64,000 nt of DNA. Source: an uncultured Gammaproteobacteria bacterium (GTDB lineage Bacteria > Pseudomonadota > Gammaproteobacteria > GCA-001735895). The notes beneath the pieces are model-generated. The model worked only from the letters and a program-made list of their open reading frames with translations. It did no database searches and was not told where the DNA came from. A program made the translations under genes and the position numbers. Below are positions 2,357 to 58,345 of this stretch, one piece after another; positions within the stretch are counted from its first letter, which is position 1; every line of letters starts with the position of its first letter. The stretch covers positions 8,149 to 72,148 of the forward strand of contig CAXMRQ010000035.1 of assembly GCA_964196115.1 (NCBI GenBank). Direction: 5' to 3'.

Positions 2357-2523
2357 TAGCTCGGAAATTTCATAAATATGCGTGAAGATCGCGCAGTATA
2401 TTGATTTCACAAGGAAATTTCTGATGGAGTCTCCTATCAGTGATTACGAGCGACTGAAGAAATATTTCTTGTGGAATCAATAGACAAGTGAGGTTGTGCA
2501 TGATTTATGAATTTTCCGGGCTA
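2357..2523. repeat. 167-bp palindromic MITE-like intergenic element, family 1, copy A
   Basis: Termini TAGCTCGGAAATTTCATAAAT ... ATTTATGAATTTTCCGGGCTA are inverted repeats, and the interior is also an imperfect palindrome (ATTGATTTCACAAGGAAAT / ATTTCTTGTGGAATCAAT). About 90% identical by eye, without indels, to 10179-10345. Its last 3 nt are the hisA stop codon (TAG on the minus strand). Confidence 0.8.
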
Positions 2524-3252
2524 ATGTTCGTCGATGTAACGCTGCGCCTCTACCAGGCTGACAGTACGTTCGTATAAAGCCCGGCCGATGATGACGCCCT
2601 CGATGCCTGCGTGTTTGACACTGTTCAAATTTATTATGTCCTGCATATCGGTTACGCCACCGGAAGCAATCACTGGAATACTAATTGATTCGGCTAATGA
2701 ACGCGTGGCTTCCAGGTTAACACCCTGCATCATGCCATCACGACTGATATCAGTATATACGATCGCAGCCACACCCTGATCCTCGAATCGCTGCGCCAGA
2801 TGCGTGACCGAGTGGTCCGAATCTTCCGCCCATCCCTGCACGGCAGCCATACCATTTTTTGCATCGATGCCGATAATAACCTTGCCCGGGAATTCGGCAC
2901 ATAACTCGGTGACAAACTCGGGTTTTTTAACTGCCTGTGTGCCGATAATGACATAACTGACACCCGCAGCCAGATATGCCTCTACGGTTTCCACGGTGCG
3001 GATGCCACCGCCAATCTGAATCGGCATATCAGGATAGGCCGCCGCAATCTCTTCGATTACATCGGCATTCACCGGGTTCCCTTCAAAAGCACCATCCAGG
3101 TCGACCAGATGTAGTCGCTGACAACCCTGTGAAACCCACTTTCCGGCCATTGCCACGGGGTCTTCTGAGAAAACCGTACTATCTTCCATTCGGCCCTGGC
3201 GTAATCGCACGCAATGTCCCTGTTTCAAATCTATTGCAGGAATCAGTATCAC
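2521..3252 (-). CDS. hisA: 1-(5-phosphoribosyl)-5-[(5-phosphoribosylamino)methylideneamino]imidazole-4-carboxamide isomerase
   Basis: The track ORF 2521-3324 has a 5' extension overlapping hisH. HisA homology begins at [21 protein letters not shown] at 3250-3252 (minus) overlaps the hisH stop as GTGA, which I take as the real start. Confidence 0.85.
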
Positions 3253-10178: not shown

Positions 10179-10345
10179 TAGCCCGGAAATTTCATAAATC
10201 TGCGCGAAGATCGCGCAGTATATTGATTTCACAAGGAAATATCCGAAGAAGTCTCGTATCAATGATTCCGAGCGACTGAGGAACTATTTCTTGTGGAATC
10301 AATAGGCCAGTGAGATTGTGCATAATTTATGAATTTTCCGGGCTA
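10179..10345. repeat. 167-bp palindromic MITE-like intergenic element, family 1, copy B
   Basis: TAGCCCGGAAATTTCATAAAT ... ATTTATGAATTTTCCGGGCTA. Same length and orientation as 2357-2523, ~90% identical by eye. Its last 3 nt are the TAG stop (minus strand) of the response-regulator gene. Confidence 0.8.
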
Positions 10346-29999: not shown

Positions 30000-31520
30000 A
30001 TGAACTTTTTTTCCTACCTGACAAGCGACGATATCCAATACGTACACCAGGCATCTCTGGAGATCCTCGAAGAAGTTGGCCTGCTGGTTCGTAATGAGAA
30101 AGCAAGGAAGCGATTCGCCGAACACGGTGCGATTGTCGACCATAAAACAGAGATGGTGCGCATCCCATCGGCGGTCGTCGAGAAGTACCGCATGCTGGTG
30201 CCACCGTCTATCACTCTGCGCGGCCGCGACCCGGCTTTCGACGTCACATTCCCGCGCAAACTGCCGGTAATCGCAACGGCCAGTTCGGCGCCGGATATCG
30301 TCGACCCGGTGAGTGGCGTGACACGCCGTTCGAGATCCGATGATATTGCCCGCATTGCTCAATTGATTAACGAGCTTCCAGGCTACGATGTATTCTCGAT
30401 ATCGACGCTCGCCGATGATGCGCCCAAAGATCAGTTCAGTCTGACTCGATTTTACGCCGCGCTGAAAAATTGTGTCAAACCCTGTCGGACATCGGTTTAC
30501 AATATTCGTGAAGCCGAGCAGGTAATCAAACTCGGTGAACTAATCGCAGGGTCGAAACCGGCCTACTGGGAACGTCCTTTCATCAACTTCGGTTATTGCG
30601 CGATTGTTTCGCCTTTGACGATGGACTTCGATAGCACCGAAACGCTGATGTACTTTGCCGAGAAAGGTATCACGGCTTACGGCACGATCGCCCCGATGGG
30701 TGGCTTGAGCACACCACTATCGCTACCGGGCATGCTGGTGATTATGAACGCAGAATGGCTTGCAGCAGCCACATTGGCACAAATGTCGAAGGCTGGAACC
30801 GCTCAAATTTATAACTTTCTGCCCGTGTTTGCCGATATGCGCGATGGTGCCTATGCACCAGGTGCAATAGAAGTCGGGATGATGAATTCGGCCGTATGTC
30901 AGATGGCACGATTTTACAACGTGCCTGCCGGTGGATATCTTGGCCTGACTAACTCCAAAGTCGCCGACGCTCAATCGGGCTTCGAAAAAGGTATGTCACC
31001 ACTGATGGGGGCAATGTCCGGTGCCGATTTCATCGTCATGGGCGGGCTGCAGGATGCGCTGATGTCGTTTGATTTCGGTCAGGCCACAATCGACAATGAG
31101 ATCGCCCTGATGATCAAACGAGTTCGCCAGGGCTTCGGGTTTTCGAAACAAAATGCCTCGTTACAGGAGATCAAGGATACTGGAGCCGCAGGCATGTTCG
31201 CGGCAAATCCGGCAACCCTGGAGCGCATGCACAGCGCAACCATGATGCCGGAGCTTGCCGACAGAAAACTGCGTGAGCATTGGGAACTGGAAGGCAGCTC
31301 GACTATACATCAGCGAGCGCTGAACAAGGCGTTCGACATTCTTTCGGCCCCAAATTCGGCCGCATTTGATGCCGATGTGGATGCTCGAATCCGCGCCGAA
31401 TTCGGAGGAATGGTCGCAGGTGACGCGATGCTTCAGGATGGATGGAAGCGTTTTGATATCGGTAGTAACGTTCCTGTGCGCGAAAGACGTCCCAATCGTC
31501 GTCGTCAGCGACAACACTAA
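30000..31520 (+). CDS. MttB-superfamily (trimethylamine methyltransferase-like, COG5598) protein, non-pyrrolysine type
   Basis: 506 aa. The N-terminus L.SDDI..VH.ASLEILEEVG..V.NE.A...F.EHGA.VD is characteristic of MttB/MtgB-family TIM barrels. The frame is uninterrupted, with no in-frame TAG. Confidence 0.85.
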   Translation: MNFFSYLTSDDIQYVHQASLEILEEVGLLVRNEKARKRFAEHGAIVDHKTEMVRIPSAVVEKYRMLVPPSITLRGRDPAFDVTFPRKLPVIATASSAPDIVDPVSGVTRRSRSDDIARIAQLINELPGYDVFSISTLADDAPKDQFSLTRFYAALKNCVKPCRTSVYNIREAEQVIKLGELIAGSKPAYWERPFINFGYCAIVSPLTMDFDSTETLMYFAEKGITAYGTIAPMGGLSTPLSLPGMLVIMNAEWLAAATLAQMSKAGTAQIYNFLPVFADMRDGAYAPGAIEVGMMNSAVCQMARFYNVPAGGYLGLTNSKVADAQSGFEKGMSPLMGAMSGADFIVMGGLQDALMSFDFGQATIDNEIALMIKRVRQGFGFSKQNASLQEIKDTGAAGMFAANPATLERMHSATMMPELADRKLREHWELEGSSTIHQRALNKAFDILSAPNSAAFDADVDARIRAEFGGMVAGDAMLQDGWKRFDIGSNVPVRERRPNRRRQRQH

Positions 31521-31552
31521 AAAAGCAATAATTAAGATAATCTCAGTAGGAC

Positions 31553-31747
31553 TAGTACTCCTTCAATGATATATCTTAGGATTCAGCCAGTCAGGAAGCG
31601 GTTAGCTGCTAGGCGTGCGACTGTAGGACTAGCCGTAGCTAATTCAAGGGAGCACACCAAAAGTAGGCGCTTTAGGCGACAACCAGATGACCGCTTCCTG
31701 GCTGGCCCGGAGGGAGCGCCCCAACATATATCATGGAAGGAGTACTA
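31553..31747 (+). promoter_or_regulatory. ~195-nt nested inverted-repeat RNA structure that sequesters the SD of the downstream gene (regulatory leader or MITE-like insertion)
   Basis: The outer arms 31553-31574 (TAGTACTCCTTCAATGATATAT) and 31726-31747 (ATATATCATGGAAGGAGTACTA) pair at 21 of 22 positions, and the right arm contains GGAAGGAG, the SD for the ATG at 31750. The inner arms 31586-31602 and 31690-31706 pair at 17 of 17 positions, including one G-U. Confidence 0.5.
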
Positions 31748-31749
31748 AC

Positions 31750-34263
31750 ATGGCGGCATCACTTCCAACCAGCGCGCGCATTGCCATCATTGGCGGAGGC
31801 GTGATAGGTACCGCCATTGCGTATCACCTGACCCGGTCCGGCGAAAAGGATGTCGTGTTGCTTGAAAAGTCACGTCTAACCGAGGGCGCTACCTGGCACG
31901 CGGCCGGGCTGGTCGGCCAATTTCGTTCGCAGCAAAACCTGATGAGCCTGATGAACGACAGCGTCAAATTGTTCGACATTCTGGCCGAAGAAACCGGCCA
32001 GGAAATCGACTGGCACAAATTTGGCAGTCTCAGACTGGCGCAAACCGAAGACCGCTGGAAGGAACTCCTCAAATCTCATTCCGCGGCACAGGCGGTTGGC
32101 TTTGAGATGAATTTGTTAACACCAAACGAAGCGCGTGACTTATACCCGCTAATTGAAACCGATGATTTAGTCGGTGCGGCCTTCATTCCGGCAGACGGGT
32201 ACATCGACCCGAACAGTCTGACTCAGGCCTATGCAAAGGGAGCCAGGGCCAACGGTGGTAGAATTTTCGAGGGCGTGATGGTCAATAATCTGTTACGTGA
32301 TGGTGATCGCATCACTCACCTGGTCACCGAACAAGGTAACATTGAAGTCGAAACAGTGATTAATGCTGCGGGACTCTGGGCGCGTCAGGTCGGCTGGATG
32401 GCAGGGGTGGAAATCCCTGCAGGCGTGGTCGAGCATCAATACCTGGTAACCGAGAAATCCGATCTAATCCCCGCTGGCTTACCGGCGTTGCGCGATCCGG
32501 ATGGGGGATTTTATGCAAAGCCGGAACCCGGTGCGCTAGCCATCGGTGGATGGGAAAAGCAAACCAACAGCGTTAACCCTAAGGAGGGTTTTCCGTGGCA
32601 AAACGAGCGCCATCTGTTTGATGGCGATATGGATCGCCTGTCAGAGTTCTTCGAACCAGCGATACGACGTATTCCTGTCCTCGGCGAACTCGGCATGCGC
32701 ACTATCGTCAATGGACCGATACCCATCTCACCCGATGGCGAACCCATCATAGGACCTGTTCCCGGATTGAGCAATTTCTTTGCCGCCTGCGCATTCACCT
32801 CCGGCATAGCCGCATCGGGCGGAGCCGGTAAAGCTGTCGCTAACTGGATTCTGGAAGGTGATCCGGGACTCGATCTGTGGCCATTCGACATTCGACGCTT
32901 CGGGCCCCTGCACGCCGGTCAGAAATTCCTGCATGACCGCGCGGTTGAAAGCTATAGTAAGTACTATGCGATCCACTGGCCGGGGGAGGAACTGGAGTCA
33001 GCCCGAGGCGTGCGGCGCAGTCCTCTTTATCAAACACTGAAAGATCAGGGCGCGGTGTTCGGATCGAAGTTCGGCTGGGAGCGAGCAAACTGGTTCGCAC
33101 ACGGTGATATCCCGCAGCAGGAAGTCTACGGATTCGACCGGCCACAACAGGCGCTTACGGTCGGTCGCGAGCATTTGGCAGCACGTGAGGGCGTAGTACT
33201 GATCGATATGTCCTCATTTACCAAATTTGAAATCAGTGGGAGCCAGGCCTGTCAGTTCCTGAATTACCTGGCGGTCGCTAATGTCGATAAGGAATCAGGG
33301 GGAGCAACCTATACGCAGTTATGCAACGAGCGAGGTGGGATCGAAGCCGACGTCACCATCATCCGGCGTTCGGAGGATTGCTTCTGGCTGATCACCGGGT
33401 CCGGCCTCGGCGTGCGCGACAGGCACTGGATCGAAAGCCACCTGCACGGTATTTTGGATCGACATATCAATCCGGATCGCTTCAGTAACGAGCAATGGAC
33501 TCGATCAGGTGAGCGATCGATTCGGCCAAACGCCCCCGGTTTCGATAAAGTAGAGCTGCGCGATATTACCTCGGCCTATGGTGTGATTAATCTTGCCGGC
33601 CCATTAGCACGCAAGGTATTACAGAAGGTTTGCGACGAAGACCTGAGCCACGAGGCCTTCCCTTTCATGGCCGCAAGAGACATCAGAATCGGATATGCGC
33701 CTGCCCTGGCCTACCGAGTTACCTATATCGGCGAACTAGGATGGGAACTCTATATTCCATCTGAATACCTTCAGTATGTATACGAAGAGCTACAGCAAGC
33801 TGGCGAGGAATTCGGTATCACCAATATAGGCTACCGGGCGATCGACAGTCTGCGCCTTGAAAAGCGTTATCTCGCCTGGGGCGTCGACATCACCCCCGAC
33901 TACAACCCTTTCGAAGCCGGATTACAGTTTCTTATCGACTGGGATAAGGGCGATTTTATCGGTGCCGAGGCCCTCGCCGAGATCAGGCAACAAGGGGTTC
34001 GGCAAAAACTGGTATGCCTTGCTCTGCATAATCCTTTGCCGGTATTCGGTGGTGAAGCTATTTTTTGCGATGACAAGGTAGTTGCGCAAACCACCAGCGG
34101 CAACTTCGGCTACTCTATTGGCAAGAGCCTGGTGCTCGGGTACCTGCCGGTTGATGTGCTCGACCGCAGTGATTTCGGAGTCGAGGCATTTGGTGAGCGG
34201 ACCCCGGCATCTATAGTGAAAGGCGCGATCTACGATCCGAAGCGGGAAAAAATTCTCTGCTAG
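31750..34263 (+). CDS. Dimethylglycine/sarcosine-dehydrogenase-like flavoprotein (DAO FAD domain fused to GcvT folate-binding aminomethyltransferase domain)
   Basis: From MAASLPTSARIAIIGGGVIGTAIAYHL: Rossmann GGGxxG, ATWHAAGL (the histidine that carries covalent FAD in DMGDH/SARDH), and C-terminal GcvT-like motifs (GYRAIDSLRLEKRY, GGEAI...). The track start at 31687 lies inside the upstream hairpin and lacks an SD. Confidence 0.85.
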   Translation: MAASLPTSARIAIIGGGVIGTAIAYHLTRSGEKDVVLLEKSRLTEGATWHAAGLVGQFRSQQNLMSLMNDSVKLFDILAEETGQEIDWHKFGSLRLAQTEDRWKELLKSHSAAQAVGFEMNLLTPNEARDLYPLIETDDLVGAAFIPADGYIDPNSLTQAYAKGARANGGRIFEGVMVNNLLRDGDRITHLVTEQGNIEVETVINAAGLWARQVGWMAGVEIPAGVVEHQYLVTEKSDLIPAGLPALRDPDGGFYAKPEPGALAIGGWEKQTNSVNPKEGFPWQNERHLFDGDMDRLSEFFEPAIRRIPVLGELGMRTIVNGPIPISPDGEPIIGPVPGLSNFFAACAFTSGIAASGGAGKAVANWILEGDPGLDLWPFDIRRFGPLHAGQKFLHDRAVESYSKYYAIHWPGEELESARGVRRSPLYQTLKDQGAVFGSKFGWERANWFAHGDIPQQEVYGFDRPQQALTVGREHLAAREGVVLIDMSSFTKFEISGSQACQFLNYLAVANVDKESGGATYTQLCNERGGIEADVTIIRRSEDCFWLITGSGLGVRDRHWIESHLHGILDRHINPDRFSNEQWTRSGERSIRPNAPGFDKVELRDITSAYGVINLAGPLARKVLQKVCDEDLSHEAFPFMAARDIRIGYAPALAYRVTYIGELGWELYIPSEYLQYVYEELQQAGEEFGITNIGYRAIDSLRLEKRYLAWGVDITPDYNPFEAGLQFLIDWDKGDFIGAEALAEIRQQGVRQKLVCLALHNPLPVFGGEAIFCDDKVVAQTTSGNFGYSIGKSLVLGYLPVDVLDRSDFGVEAFGERTPASIVKGAIYDPKREKILC

Positions 34264-34322: not shown

Positions 34323-35618
34323 ATGCCATTTGAAGAACTGAATTTTCCTGCGGGCATTCATTTACTGGCTCGCTGGCAGGCCAATGACCCAATGGCGGTA
34401 CGGCGCCTGAAGGATATTTTTGATGCCACGATAAAAGGGCGGTATGACAAAGTTTTCAAGAGGCCAGTACCACAGGATTCGGTGCATGTTGCAGGCCCCG
34501 TAGATCTGATGACGCTAACCATTATGCACCGCCTTTATGGTCTGACATCGGCTGAGTTTTACAAGCAAGACCCGGAACGTTTTGTACGCACCTCGTTAAT
34601 GACGCAAAAATTACTGGGCATGCCCAAGCTTTATATAAGCTGGCCAGTCTATGGGTTTACCGCAGAAACCCTGGGGCAAGAAATGATTTACTCGGATCAA
34701 TACTCCCCCGGCACGGATCCGGATAAACCGTTAGCCAATTCTGACAACTGGCAAGATATTGGGACACCTGCGATGAATACAGGCATCCCCAAATTACTCG
34801 ATCAGATCCTGGCCTGTTATCAGCACTTAACTGGACTCAACCCTGTTTTGCACTTAACCGCAGCTTATAGCCTGGCAGCAGATATCTATGGACAGGAACA
34901 AATAATCACCGCCCTGACCCATGAACCCGAATTTGTGAATAAATTCCTCGACCACCTGGCAGACACCGTTTTGAAACCCTGGATGGATCATTTTTTCAAC
35001 CAGTACCCCAACGGATGGGTCGAACTAAGCGATGCTTCAGGATCGCCTTTTTTTATCGGCCCGCAAAACTGTAAAAACGTCGCTATTCGGTCGACTCAGC
35101 GGCTAATCGCTGCAAATCCATGGGGGAAACGCGTCTATGATGCCAATTACCGTGGCGATTACGTAACCCAGGCAAACAAAAGAAATTCTTCGTCATCGAG
35201 GCGTAGGAACCCCAGAAAAACCGACCCTGAGCACCCAAGCCTAGTTGAATTATTTGATATAAAAAATAGCGTTTGCCCTGATTATGTGATTCGTCTCGCC
35301 GAAGATCGCACAGCTGTTAGTTTTTATGTGGAGCAGGCAATTAGGTGCAATATCCCACTGTTTATGGGCATTGGCGCTACCCTGATCGACCGTAACAGCA
35401 TTGCCGATCTGGAAATCGCAAAACAGGAAATCAAGGCCATGGCCTGTGAATATACAGAGGCGATTAAGACGGTTGCCAAATCCATCGAGAAGAATGGTTA
35501 TAATTTAAGAGTACCCCCCTGGCCAGGCACAATTTATTTTGAAGACATCAGCGCTGAGTCCAACTTTGATTTAATCGAAATTATTATCGACACCGTACTA
35601 AAGCAGGGTGCACTGTGA
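34323..35618 (+). CDS. Conserved-looking hypothetical protein; possible URO-D/MtaA-like (MT2-type) TIM-barrel resemblance
   Basis: 431 aa with no motif I can assign confidently. The spacing of segments (..AEFYKQDPERFV...Q.LLG.........YGFTAETLGQE.......P......; ....GLNPVLHLTAAYSLAADIYGQEQIITALTHEPEFVNKFLDHLADTVL..W) is reminiscent of the uroporphyrinogen-decarboxylase/methylcobamide methyltransferase family. It contains a basic low-complexity insertion, NKRNSSSSRRRNPRKTDPEH. Confidence 0.55.
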   Translation: MPFEELNFPAGIHLLARWQANDPMAVRRLKDIFDATIKGRYDKVFKRPVPQDSVHVAGPVDLMTLTIMHRLYGLTSAEFYKQDPERFVRTSLMTQKLLGMPKLYISWPVYGFTAETLGQEMIYSDQYSPGTDPDKPLANSDNWQDIGTPAMNTGIPKLLDQILACYQHLTGLNPVLHLTAAYSLAADIYGQEQIITALTHEPEFVNKFLDHLADTVLKPWMDHFFNQYPNGWVELSDASGSPFFIGPQNCKNVAIRSTQRLIAANPWGKRVYDANYRGDYVTQANKRNSSSSRRRNPRKTDPEHPSLVELFDIKNSVCPDYVIRLAEDRTAVSFYVEQAIRCNIPLFMGIGATLIDRNSIADLEIAKQEIKAMACEYTEAIKTVAKSIEKNGYNLRVPPWPGTIYFEDISAESNFDLIEIIIDTVLKQGAL

Positions 35619-43935: not shown

Positions 43936-43975
43936 CAATGTGAGACAATGGGCTTTAGCCCATTGTCTCACATTG
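43936..43975 (-). terminator. Perfect 19-bp hairpin downstream of SBP paralog 2
   Basis: CAATGTGAGACAATGGGCT-TT-AGCCCATTGTCTCACATTG begins 15 nt after the paralog-2 stop. It has no clean U-run, so it may act as a terminator, a stabiliser, or both. Confidence 0.55.
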
Positions 43976-50715: not shown

Positions 50716-50888
50716 ATCATCCTAGAAAACCCAGTTGGATCACGAAAGTCCACGCAAGCTCTTGACGCGCCTAGCAAAATAAAAAAACCTCTAATCACCA
50801 ATAAGGTGCCTACGAATTTTTTGATTTCACTATGCACGCCAATATCTTACGCGTCTTTTTCGCGCCCAACTGGGTTTTCTAGGATCAT
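50716..50888. repeat. 173-bp palindromic MITE-like element, family 3 (core related to family 1)
   Basis: The termini are ATCATCCTAGAAAACCCAGTTGG ... CCAACTGGGTTTTCTAGGATCAT. The interior is an imperfect palindrome and shares GCGCGAA..A..CGCG...ATATTG and TTGATTTCAC / GTGCATA blocks with family 1. The right terminus contains the TGA stop (minus strand) of the ABC-2 permease. Confidence 0.65.
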
Positions 50889-58177: not shown

Positions 58178-58345
58178 CTAGGAGTCTGTCGGACTTAGGT
58201 AATCGTAGCGAGGGAAAGCCATTATGAGTCAGATTTTTCTATCGATTGAGGCGAATAGTCATTCATATTTAACGAAATGGATAGGAAAATTTGGCCAAAA
58301 TGGTTTTTCCGCAGTAGATTTATCCTAAATCCGACAGACTCCTAG
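58178..58345. repeat. 168-bp palindromic MITE-like element, family 2
   Basis: The termini CTAGGAGTCTGTCGGACTTAGG ... CCTAAATCCGACAGACTCCTAG pair at 21 of 22 positions, and the interior is also an imperfect palindrome. The left terminus recurs alone at 18545-18566. Confidence 0.7.

Follow-up and report, generated by a model that had tools for sequence, protein, structure and literature searches.

What kind of element lies between an MttB-family methyltransferase gene and a DMGDH-type flavoprotein gene as a nested hairpin of 195 nt that holds the Shine-Dalgarno (SD) sequence of the second gene? The question arises in a stretch of DNA of 64,000 nt (hereafter the window, the whole stretch that was analysed), for which the initial annotation had proposed an unclassified riboswitch-like leader inside a methylamine operon or, as a fallback, a palindromic MITE that happens to supply the SD. 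Empty sites at orthologous loci and dispersed copies elsewhere fit the fallback reading. The hairpin is interpreted here, with a probability of about 0.9, as a palindromic MITE-like mobile repeat, and not a metabolite-sensing leader, that supplies the SD of the flavoprotein gene (dmgdh). The flanking genes, which had been assigned as mttB-family and dmgdh-like, were confirmed by their Pfam domains. The features of the locus are as follows.

30000-31520, + strand: MttB-family methyltransferase gene (PF06253, MTTB), with 32 nt between the end of its stop codon and the element
31548-31551, + strand: displaced native SD (AGGA), aligned with the L027 and L025 junctions
31553-31747, + strand: whole insert, flanking TA included (TA + 191-nt core + TA), defined by empty sites and copies elsewhere
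31553-31554, no strand: left flanking TA, putative target-site duplication, junction gaC-TA-GTACTCC
31555-31584, + strand: left terminal inverted repeat (TIR), 30 nt, GTACTCCTTCAATGATATATCTTAGGATTC, first 20 nt near-invariant among copies
31586-31706, + strand: domain 1, an internal hairpin whose 17-bp stem encloses a branched interior, from a 9-copy alignment
31655-31679, + strand: optional 25-nt mini-hairpin module CCAAAAGTAGGCGCTTTAGGCGACA, from comparison with other copies
31716-31745, + strand: right TIR, of which only the outer 20 nt (31726-31745) are intact
31736-31742, + strand: GAAGGAG in the right arm, acting SD of dmgdh, 7 nt before the ATG
31746-31747, no strand: right flanking TA, followed by AC and the ATG at 31750
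31750-34263, + strand: intact DMGDH/sarcosine-dehydrogenase-type flavoprotein gene, 837 aa, with DAO, FAO_M, GCV_T and GCV_T_C domains

The pairings that had been read directly from the letters were upheld by a sequence check. Of the 22 positions in the outer arms (31553-31574 and 31726-31747), 21 are paired, and the inner stem (31586-31602 with 31690-31706) comprises 17 bp, one of them a U-G. The further central stem of about 10 bp is possible as an alternative only, while the MFE structure and the alifold consensus use another small hairpin. The right arm carries GGAAGGAG at 31735-31742, with its GGAG ending 7 nt ahead of the ATG at 31750, and this is indeed the only good SD for that codon. 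Its pairing partner is CTCCTTC plus an A in the left TIR (31559-31565). The sole outer-stem mismatch in the 195-nt element, A31565 opposite G31735, adjoins the SD; G31735 is private to the window copy, the family consensus being T. The RNA of positions 31540-31770 was predicted to fold at -94.4 kcal/mol, compared with -67.2 +/- 4.5 kcal/mol for 200 dinucleotide shuffles (z = -6.0), and no shuffle (0/200) folded as stably. Blocking of the SD in the folded RNA is likewise predicted: P(unpaired) is at most 0.015 in a 390-nt mRNA context, versus 0.3-0.9 for the native SDs at empty sites.

The coding content of the window element is limited to a chance ORF of 60 aa (31566-31748) and an ATG at 31687 in frame with dmgdh. 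The ORF finder extended dmgdh from this ATG (extension 31687-31749) to an ORF of 858 aa. No SD precedes the ATG at 31687, which is located within the inner stem and is missing from orthologues; the 858-aa start is an annotation artefact. Many close orthologues of the dmgdh flavoprotein are present in uncultured Gammaproteobacteria, and they begin M(A/T)ASLP(T/S)SAR; the protein encoded in the window begins MAASLPTSAR, and because this N-terminus is common to the orthologues, the ATG at 31750 is the true dmgdh start. The sequence GTAGGACTAG is present twice, as had been noticed (31546-31555 and 31623-31632). This duplicate in flank and interior was considered as a trace of target recognition and rejected: other copies carry CGCAGGACTAG internally and their flanks are unrelated, so that it is a window-specific coincidence.

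The history of the junction was examined by comparing seven orthologous mttB-dmgdh loci (L024-L029 and L034; 87-91% amino acid identity), which all have the gene order LysR / mttB / dmgdh / 431-aa ORF / HD. The element is absent from every one of the seven junctions, and the mttB-dmgdh spacer measures 18-37 nt in these loci versus 229 nt in the window. One locus, L027, can be aligned across the insertion point: it reads AAAAGTAATTATAAGATTACCCCGGCAGGACTGAAAC directly before the ATG, where the window reads AAAAGCAATAATTAAGATAATCTCAGTAGGAC, then TA-191 nt-TA, then AC and the ATG (in a shorter rendering, ...GGCAGGACTGAAAC before the ATG versus ...CAGTAGGAC, TA-element-TA, AC and the ATG). The insertion point thus lies between the native SD and the start codon, 2 nt upstream of the ATG. 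The reconstructed empty-site leader is ...CAGTAGGACTAACATG. The native SD, AGGA, corresponds in the alignment to GCAGGAC in L027, 7 nt ahead of the ATG, and to TAGGAAAAGG in L025; in the window it is now separated from the dmgdh start codon by about 200 nt. At the insertion dinucleotide itself the L027 empty site is diverged (CTGAAAC versus CTAAC). The window insertion is fixed: seven near-identical assemblies, obtained from different samples, carry it without any base change, with a single G/T difference in L006 as the sole exception. Directly downstream of dmgdh, the 431-aa ORF (34323-35618) gave no Pfam match; it probably belongs to the operon as an uncharacterised member, because its position is conserved in all orthologous loci that were fetched (L004, L025, L028, L030 and L034).

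The element was next sought beyond this locus by scanning for the arm sequence, which gave 3 MAG contigs in the genome collection, a set of representatives other than the source genome, and 17 contigs in the metagenome collection. In these MAGs and metagenomes of uncultured Gammaproteobacteria, about 17 distinct and unrelated intergenic sites carry the family. Among these are a full-length copy in L003, 91% identical and located 33 nt upstream of an M24/creatinase-type gene, and copies in L014 and L021 that are 93-94% identical to the window over the first 172 nt. The genes beside copies encode argininosuccinate synthase, a metallo-beta-lactamase-fold protein, GSDH, SmpB, DNA polymerase III tau/gamma, MoxR, an RF-1-domain protein, HAD, NUDIX, a XerC/D-type recombinase, Tdh, Kbl, an SDR, an alpha/beta hydrolase, RsfS/RlmH and a CoaE-like protein. 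They have no common function, and many copies are located at gene 3' ends. Seven contigs (L006, L033, L036, L012, L009, L022 and L023) terminate inside the element, as is expected of repeats. Within the 64-kb window, blastn and nhmmer found no further or diverged copy besides that at 31553. In L010, a short arm-pair (199-262) lies about 2.6 kb from a full copy (2909-3217) on the same contig, so at least two copies occur in one genome.

The family has a modular anatomy. Its 30-nt TIR has the consensus GTACTCCTTCAATGATATATCTTAGGATGC, with the first 20 nt unchanged in almost every copy, and the two arms are complementary at 29/30 positions in L003 and 31/32 in L014. Domain 1 is a conserved hairpin with a stem of 17-19 bp and a branched interior. 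The 25-nt mini-hairpin module is present, absent or inversely duplicated, depending on the copy, and longer copies have a second hairpin domain that may hold another inverted copy of this module. Forms of 34 bp (arms fused), 191-197 bp, 240 bp (interior rearranged), 264-270 bp and 302-313 bp were found. In the 240-bp copy (L002, 3863-4102), the same arms enclose interior modules that are reordered and reoriented, with the domain-1 core inverted, and the family is a mosaic rather than a single linear consensus. Fusions of the two arms form palindromes of 32-34 bp (L001 143-180, L007 88-125, L015 456-493, L016 1375-1408 and L020 1503-1534), which could be deletion remnants or excision footprints. 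By its sequence, the window copy is read as a short single-domain form of this modular MITE-like family. Deletion of the second hairpin domain, which the long forms have, accounts for the degenerate inner 10 nt of its right TIR; with domain 2 and these 10 nt lost, its outer stem stops at 22 bp, compared with 29/30 in L003. Since the right arm is partly degenerate, the window copy is probably no longer mobile. The copies measure 34-313 bp, against about 50-500 bp for MITEs, and this size, the conserved TIRs, the dispersed copies and the empty site are those of a MITE.

The junctions bear on the mode of mobilisation. Among 26 non-redundant termini, the outside flank is TA in 16 and TAG in 12, and 7 of the 10 non-TA flanks differ from TA by a single transition (TG or CA). 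The typical junction is C-TA-element-TA-G, and TA is found on both sides of the element in the window, L001 and L018. A TA target-site duplication is likely, although TA is itself palindromic and may belong to the TIR. IS630 targets the TA in CTAG and, on insertion, leaves this dinucleotide on both sides as a 2-bp target-site duplication (PMC2577343, Table 1, citing Tenzen and Ohtsubo, 1991), and the typical junction shows the TA within CTAG, with a putative 2-bp duplication, as in IS630/Tc1-mariner elements. From this CTAG/TA signature alone, we infer mobilisation by an IS630/Tc1-type transposase. Pfam scans of 20 flanking ORFs detected no transposase beside the copies; the only recombinase among these ORFs, a XerC/D-type gene beside L008 that is convergent with the element, is probably a housekeeping gene. 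A distant blastn search with a full-length copy found no parent IS in the plasmid and phage collections, and no autonomous IS with matching ends was found beside the copies, in the 64-kb window or in those collections. If the parent is of IS630 type, it would be bounded by GTACTCCTTCAATGATATAT.

Four other palindromic elements of 159-167 bp, bounded by C-TA...TA-G, occur in the window (2357-2523, 10179-10345, 50723-50881 and 58179-58344), whereas shuffled controls gave no TA/CTAG-bounded palindromic element in 20 runs. The elements at 2357-2523 and 10179-10345 are copies of one family. Kinship of the window's palindromic elements with one another was considered and rejected, as alignment shows no shared primary sequence, and none of the four shares sequence with the 31553 element; they are separate families, alike in size and in CTAG/TA ends, and the four are probably additional MITE families of IS630 type. 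CTAG is strongly depleted in the window as a whole (87 observed versus about 248 expected from base composition). Nine of these 87 are at ends of the five palindromic elements; two right ends, those of the copies at 2357 and 31553, have CTAA. At 43936-43975, two perfectly matching 19-bp arms (CAATGTGAGACAATGGGCT / AGCCCATTGTCTCACATTG) face each other across a 2-nt spacer, and this inverted repeat could be an operator or a terminator stem.

The termini showed a further, unforeseen property of the family. Each copy presents GAAGGAGTAC followed by TA outward at both ends, with GAAGGAG 5 nt from the TA-flanked end; the SD faces outward at both ends because the arms are symmetric. Besides dmgdh, three sites were found where the element ends 2-4 nt before genuine start codons, as follows.

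tdh-kbl junction (L011): GGAGTAC TAG ATG, N-terminus MYGEFKNHIQQQL
SDR gene (L012): GGAGTAC TA GTG, N-terminus MKFSNKRVVITGG
rsfS-rlmH junction (L018 and L021): GGAGTAC TAGC TTG, N-terminus MQLQIIAVGQKMP, PF02590

A CoaE-like gene in L023 starts 10 nt from the element terminus. Start-adjacent termini thus occur at 3 of the 16 other sites, compared with 2.1% expected from the window's intergenic TA sites (P ~0.004), a comparison that uses rough gene calls, ignores any CTAG preference and leaves out the ascertained window case.

The rsfS-rlmH insertion is orthologous across lineages in which RlmH has diverged by 12-14%. The rsfS stop codon TAG is made up of TA from the left flank and G, the first nucleotide of the element. 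The right arm sets GGAG 7 nt before the TTG, which matches the spacing of the junction inferred for the native state (GGAGTATTAGC TTG). An RF-1-domain (ArfB-like) gene at the L001 and L015 sites ends in a stop codon composed of the flanking TA and the initial G of the element. Comparison of L018 (60-325) with L021 (1577-1840) showed RsfS to be 100% identical and the element interiors to differ: one has the 25-nt module twice and is devoid of the domain 2 core, and the other is the reverse, a pattern suggestive of gene conversion or a rapid exchange of modules among copies. The L035 copy has a deletion of the left arm, and the L011 copy is without this arm too. The right terminus and its SD are kept in every rsfS-rlmH version while the interior, and even the left arm, varies, and this retention fits with the SD being in use.

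Folding was also used to predict how a translating ribosome would affect the hairpin. When a ribosome footprint of +10 to +16 past the stop codon was forced on the rsfS-rlmH copy, the predicted mean accessibility of the SD rose from 0.000 to 0.86-0.95, and the hairpin is thus predicted to gate rlmH translation on rsfS translation. The same constraint at the mttB stop codon leaves the SD of the window closed, with P(unpaired) of 0.003; coupling is not predicted there because the mttB stop lies 32 nt before the left arm. For the window, constitutive lowering of DMGDH relative to MttB translation is most likely, being the prediction best supported by the folding models. By analogy with Correia elements, it is possible that the 22-bp stem is processed by a double-strand-specific RNase.

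These observations raise the possibility that the MITE has been domesticated as a hairpin-gated translational coupler or a site for RNase III or RNase E, with the SD of the arms and the stop-restoring TA+G keeping both genes expressed and the gate in the window setting the MttB:DMGDH ratio. The excess of start-adjacent termini, the persistence of the rsfS-rlmH copy with its right terminus and SD, the rebuilt rsfS stop codon and the predicted opening of the SD by a footprint at this stop all point in this direction, and precedents exist in the cutting of Correia elements by RNase III, the effect of ERIC, through RNase E, on mRNA stability (PMC2229807, PMC10969869) and the ribosome-binding site of REP2 (PMC3184786). 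However, a ribosome terminating at the window's mttB stop leaves the SD closed, the start-codon enrichment could arise without any function, from target preference or from a survivorship filter, and its null model is built on crude gene calls; domestication is a tentative proposal that we consider possible but do not favour. A stronger version is rather unlikely, namely that the family is built for operon junctions, where TA+G rebuilds the stop codon, the arm SD replaces the ribosome-binding site at native spacing and the hairpin gates coupling, the window copy being a co-opted brake that sets DMGDH output or a switch that RNase III, a helicase, temperature or another trans factor would open.

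As a long GC-containing hairpin in an intergenic position, the element might also be a transcription terminator or attenuator, or might carry a promoter, and thereby uncouple dmgdh from mttB. The stem is not followed by a U-tract (ACATGGCGGC), and a scan for terminators and promoters found no terminator at the element and no promoter-like site on the + strand within it, the only internal match being a weak one (9/12) on the - strand; this alternative is very unlikely.

The riboswitch proposal, in which a switch dedicated to the methylamine/betaine operon would unfold its outer stem, and so free the SD, when a ligand or protein binds the central domain, drew on the very stable SD-burying hairpin, and it could further appeal to the branched central domain conserved among copies and to the possibly, if loosely, related metabolism of the creatinase/M24-type gene downstream of the L003 copy. 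The covariation check suggested for it, made here with RNAalifold on 9 copies, yielded no informative compensatory change: the covariation term is -0.6 kcal/mol, and a double change was found in 2 of 37 pairs, effectively one shared change from G-C to A-U, among copies that are 80-94% alike and too similar to inform. Retention of the stems reflects sequence identity through recent common descent, perhaps with transposase binding, and is neutral as to a constraint on RNA structure. Rfam 15 gave no match, either for the whole window at the gathering score or for the element at E <= 1. Missing from all seven orthologous leaders, repeated at 80-94% identity beside unrelated housekeeping genes and at gene 3' ends, and bounded by invariant 20-nt TA-flanked termini that are a signature of transposition and not of an aptamer, the hairpin is the least likely of all to be such a switch, and this claim of the initial annotation is abandoned.

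For the mobile-repeat reading, the course of events is as follows. The family consists of non-autonomous palindromic mobile repeats of uncultured marine or sediment Gammaproteobacteria, with 30-nt TIRs around one or two hairpin domains and no coding capacity, probably moved by an IS630/Tc1-type transposase. A copy inserted at the TA 2 nt upstream of the dmgdh ATG, within a formerly tight mttB-dmgdh junction, and pushed the native AGGA about 200 nt away. Insertion was tolerated because the right arm brings the consensus SD GAAGGAG to a good spacing, 7 nt from the ATG. In the co-transcribed mRNA the arms would pair and hide this SD, so the element would most likely be a constitutive brake on DMGDH translation or an RNase-processing site, with no ligand sensing. 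At sites where an upstream stop codon abuts the left arm, the hairpin would tie downstream translation to upstream translation.

Several known repeats resemble the element in part. The ERIC/IRU sequences of Yersinia and other Enterobacteriaceae are non-coding intergenic palindromes with long TIRs that form RNA hairpins when co-transcribed and often abut stop codons; shorter and longer variants arise by internal deletion or insertion, and the flanking mRNA is affected (PMC2229807). The likeness is one of architecture only. The present family differs from ERIC in its hosts, uncultured marine or sediment Gammaproteobacteria of ~47% GC, in its larger and more modular build (up to 313 bp, with two hairpin domains and a mini-hairpin module), and in arms that carry a consensus SD used by downstream genes. 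ERIC insertion reportedly duplicates TA, a finding ascribed to De Gregorio et al. in 2005. RUP of Streptococcus pneumoniae is a MITE with TA target sites that is attributed to IS630-Spn1 (PMC2229807). The TIRs of RUP match a known IS, whereas no parent IS was found for the window family in the searches described above, and the two differ in size and sequence. In Neisseria, co-transcribed TIR hairpins of Correia/NEMIS elements alter the expression of neighbours, and their long stems are substrates of RNase III (PMC2229807, PMC10969869). Correia elements supply promoters and IHF sites whereas the window family supplies an SD, and the two have no sequence similarity. The target of Correia elements is TA.

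Other systems are comparable in the way that they affect translation. Neisseria REP2 and Borrelia IR-A are dispersed repeats located directly upstream of genes to which they bring a ribosome-binding site (PMC3184786). REP2 is devoid of TIRs and carries a promoter and an ATG as well, whereas the present element gives only the SD, from a transposon-type terminal repeat. In contrast to REP/REPIN sequences, which are short (20-40 nt), GC-rich, with a GTAG head and in inverted pairs, the arms of the element are AT-rich 30-mers that end in GTAC and are flanked by TA; only the optional 25-nt inner module starts with GTAGGCGC. Structure-mediated coupling is familiar from the coat-replicase pair of phage MS2, in which the ribosome melts an upstream segment that sequesters the downstream SD. 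A similar coupling is predicted for the rsfS-rlmH copy; the pairing partner differs from that of MS2 in being the other arm of a mobile element, and the geometry in the window does not allow coupling. The family is undescribed in that no described family with the element's sequence was found, in a comparison that did not extend to the IS/MITE databases. Its SD-bearing, stop-restoring arms, together with the hairpin-gated coupling predicted by folding, would be a modest twist on bacterial MITEs.

The analysis removes a false riboswitch candidate and indicates a hallmark of such false positives, a stable SD-burying hairpin that ends in invariant inverted repeats flanked by TA. Also documented is a modular and so far uncharacterised MITE family of uncultured Gammaproteobacteria, in which the SD of the terminal repeat repeatedly serves host genes (dmgdh, kbl, SDR and rlmH). 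If the predicted gating is true, genome annotation would be affected, as start codons and ribosome-binding sites adjoin repeats at which assemblies tend to break, and these elements would represent a natural and portable form of translational control that could shift the ratios of subunits or enzymes in operons.
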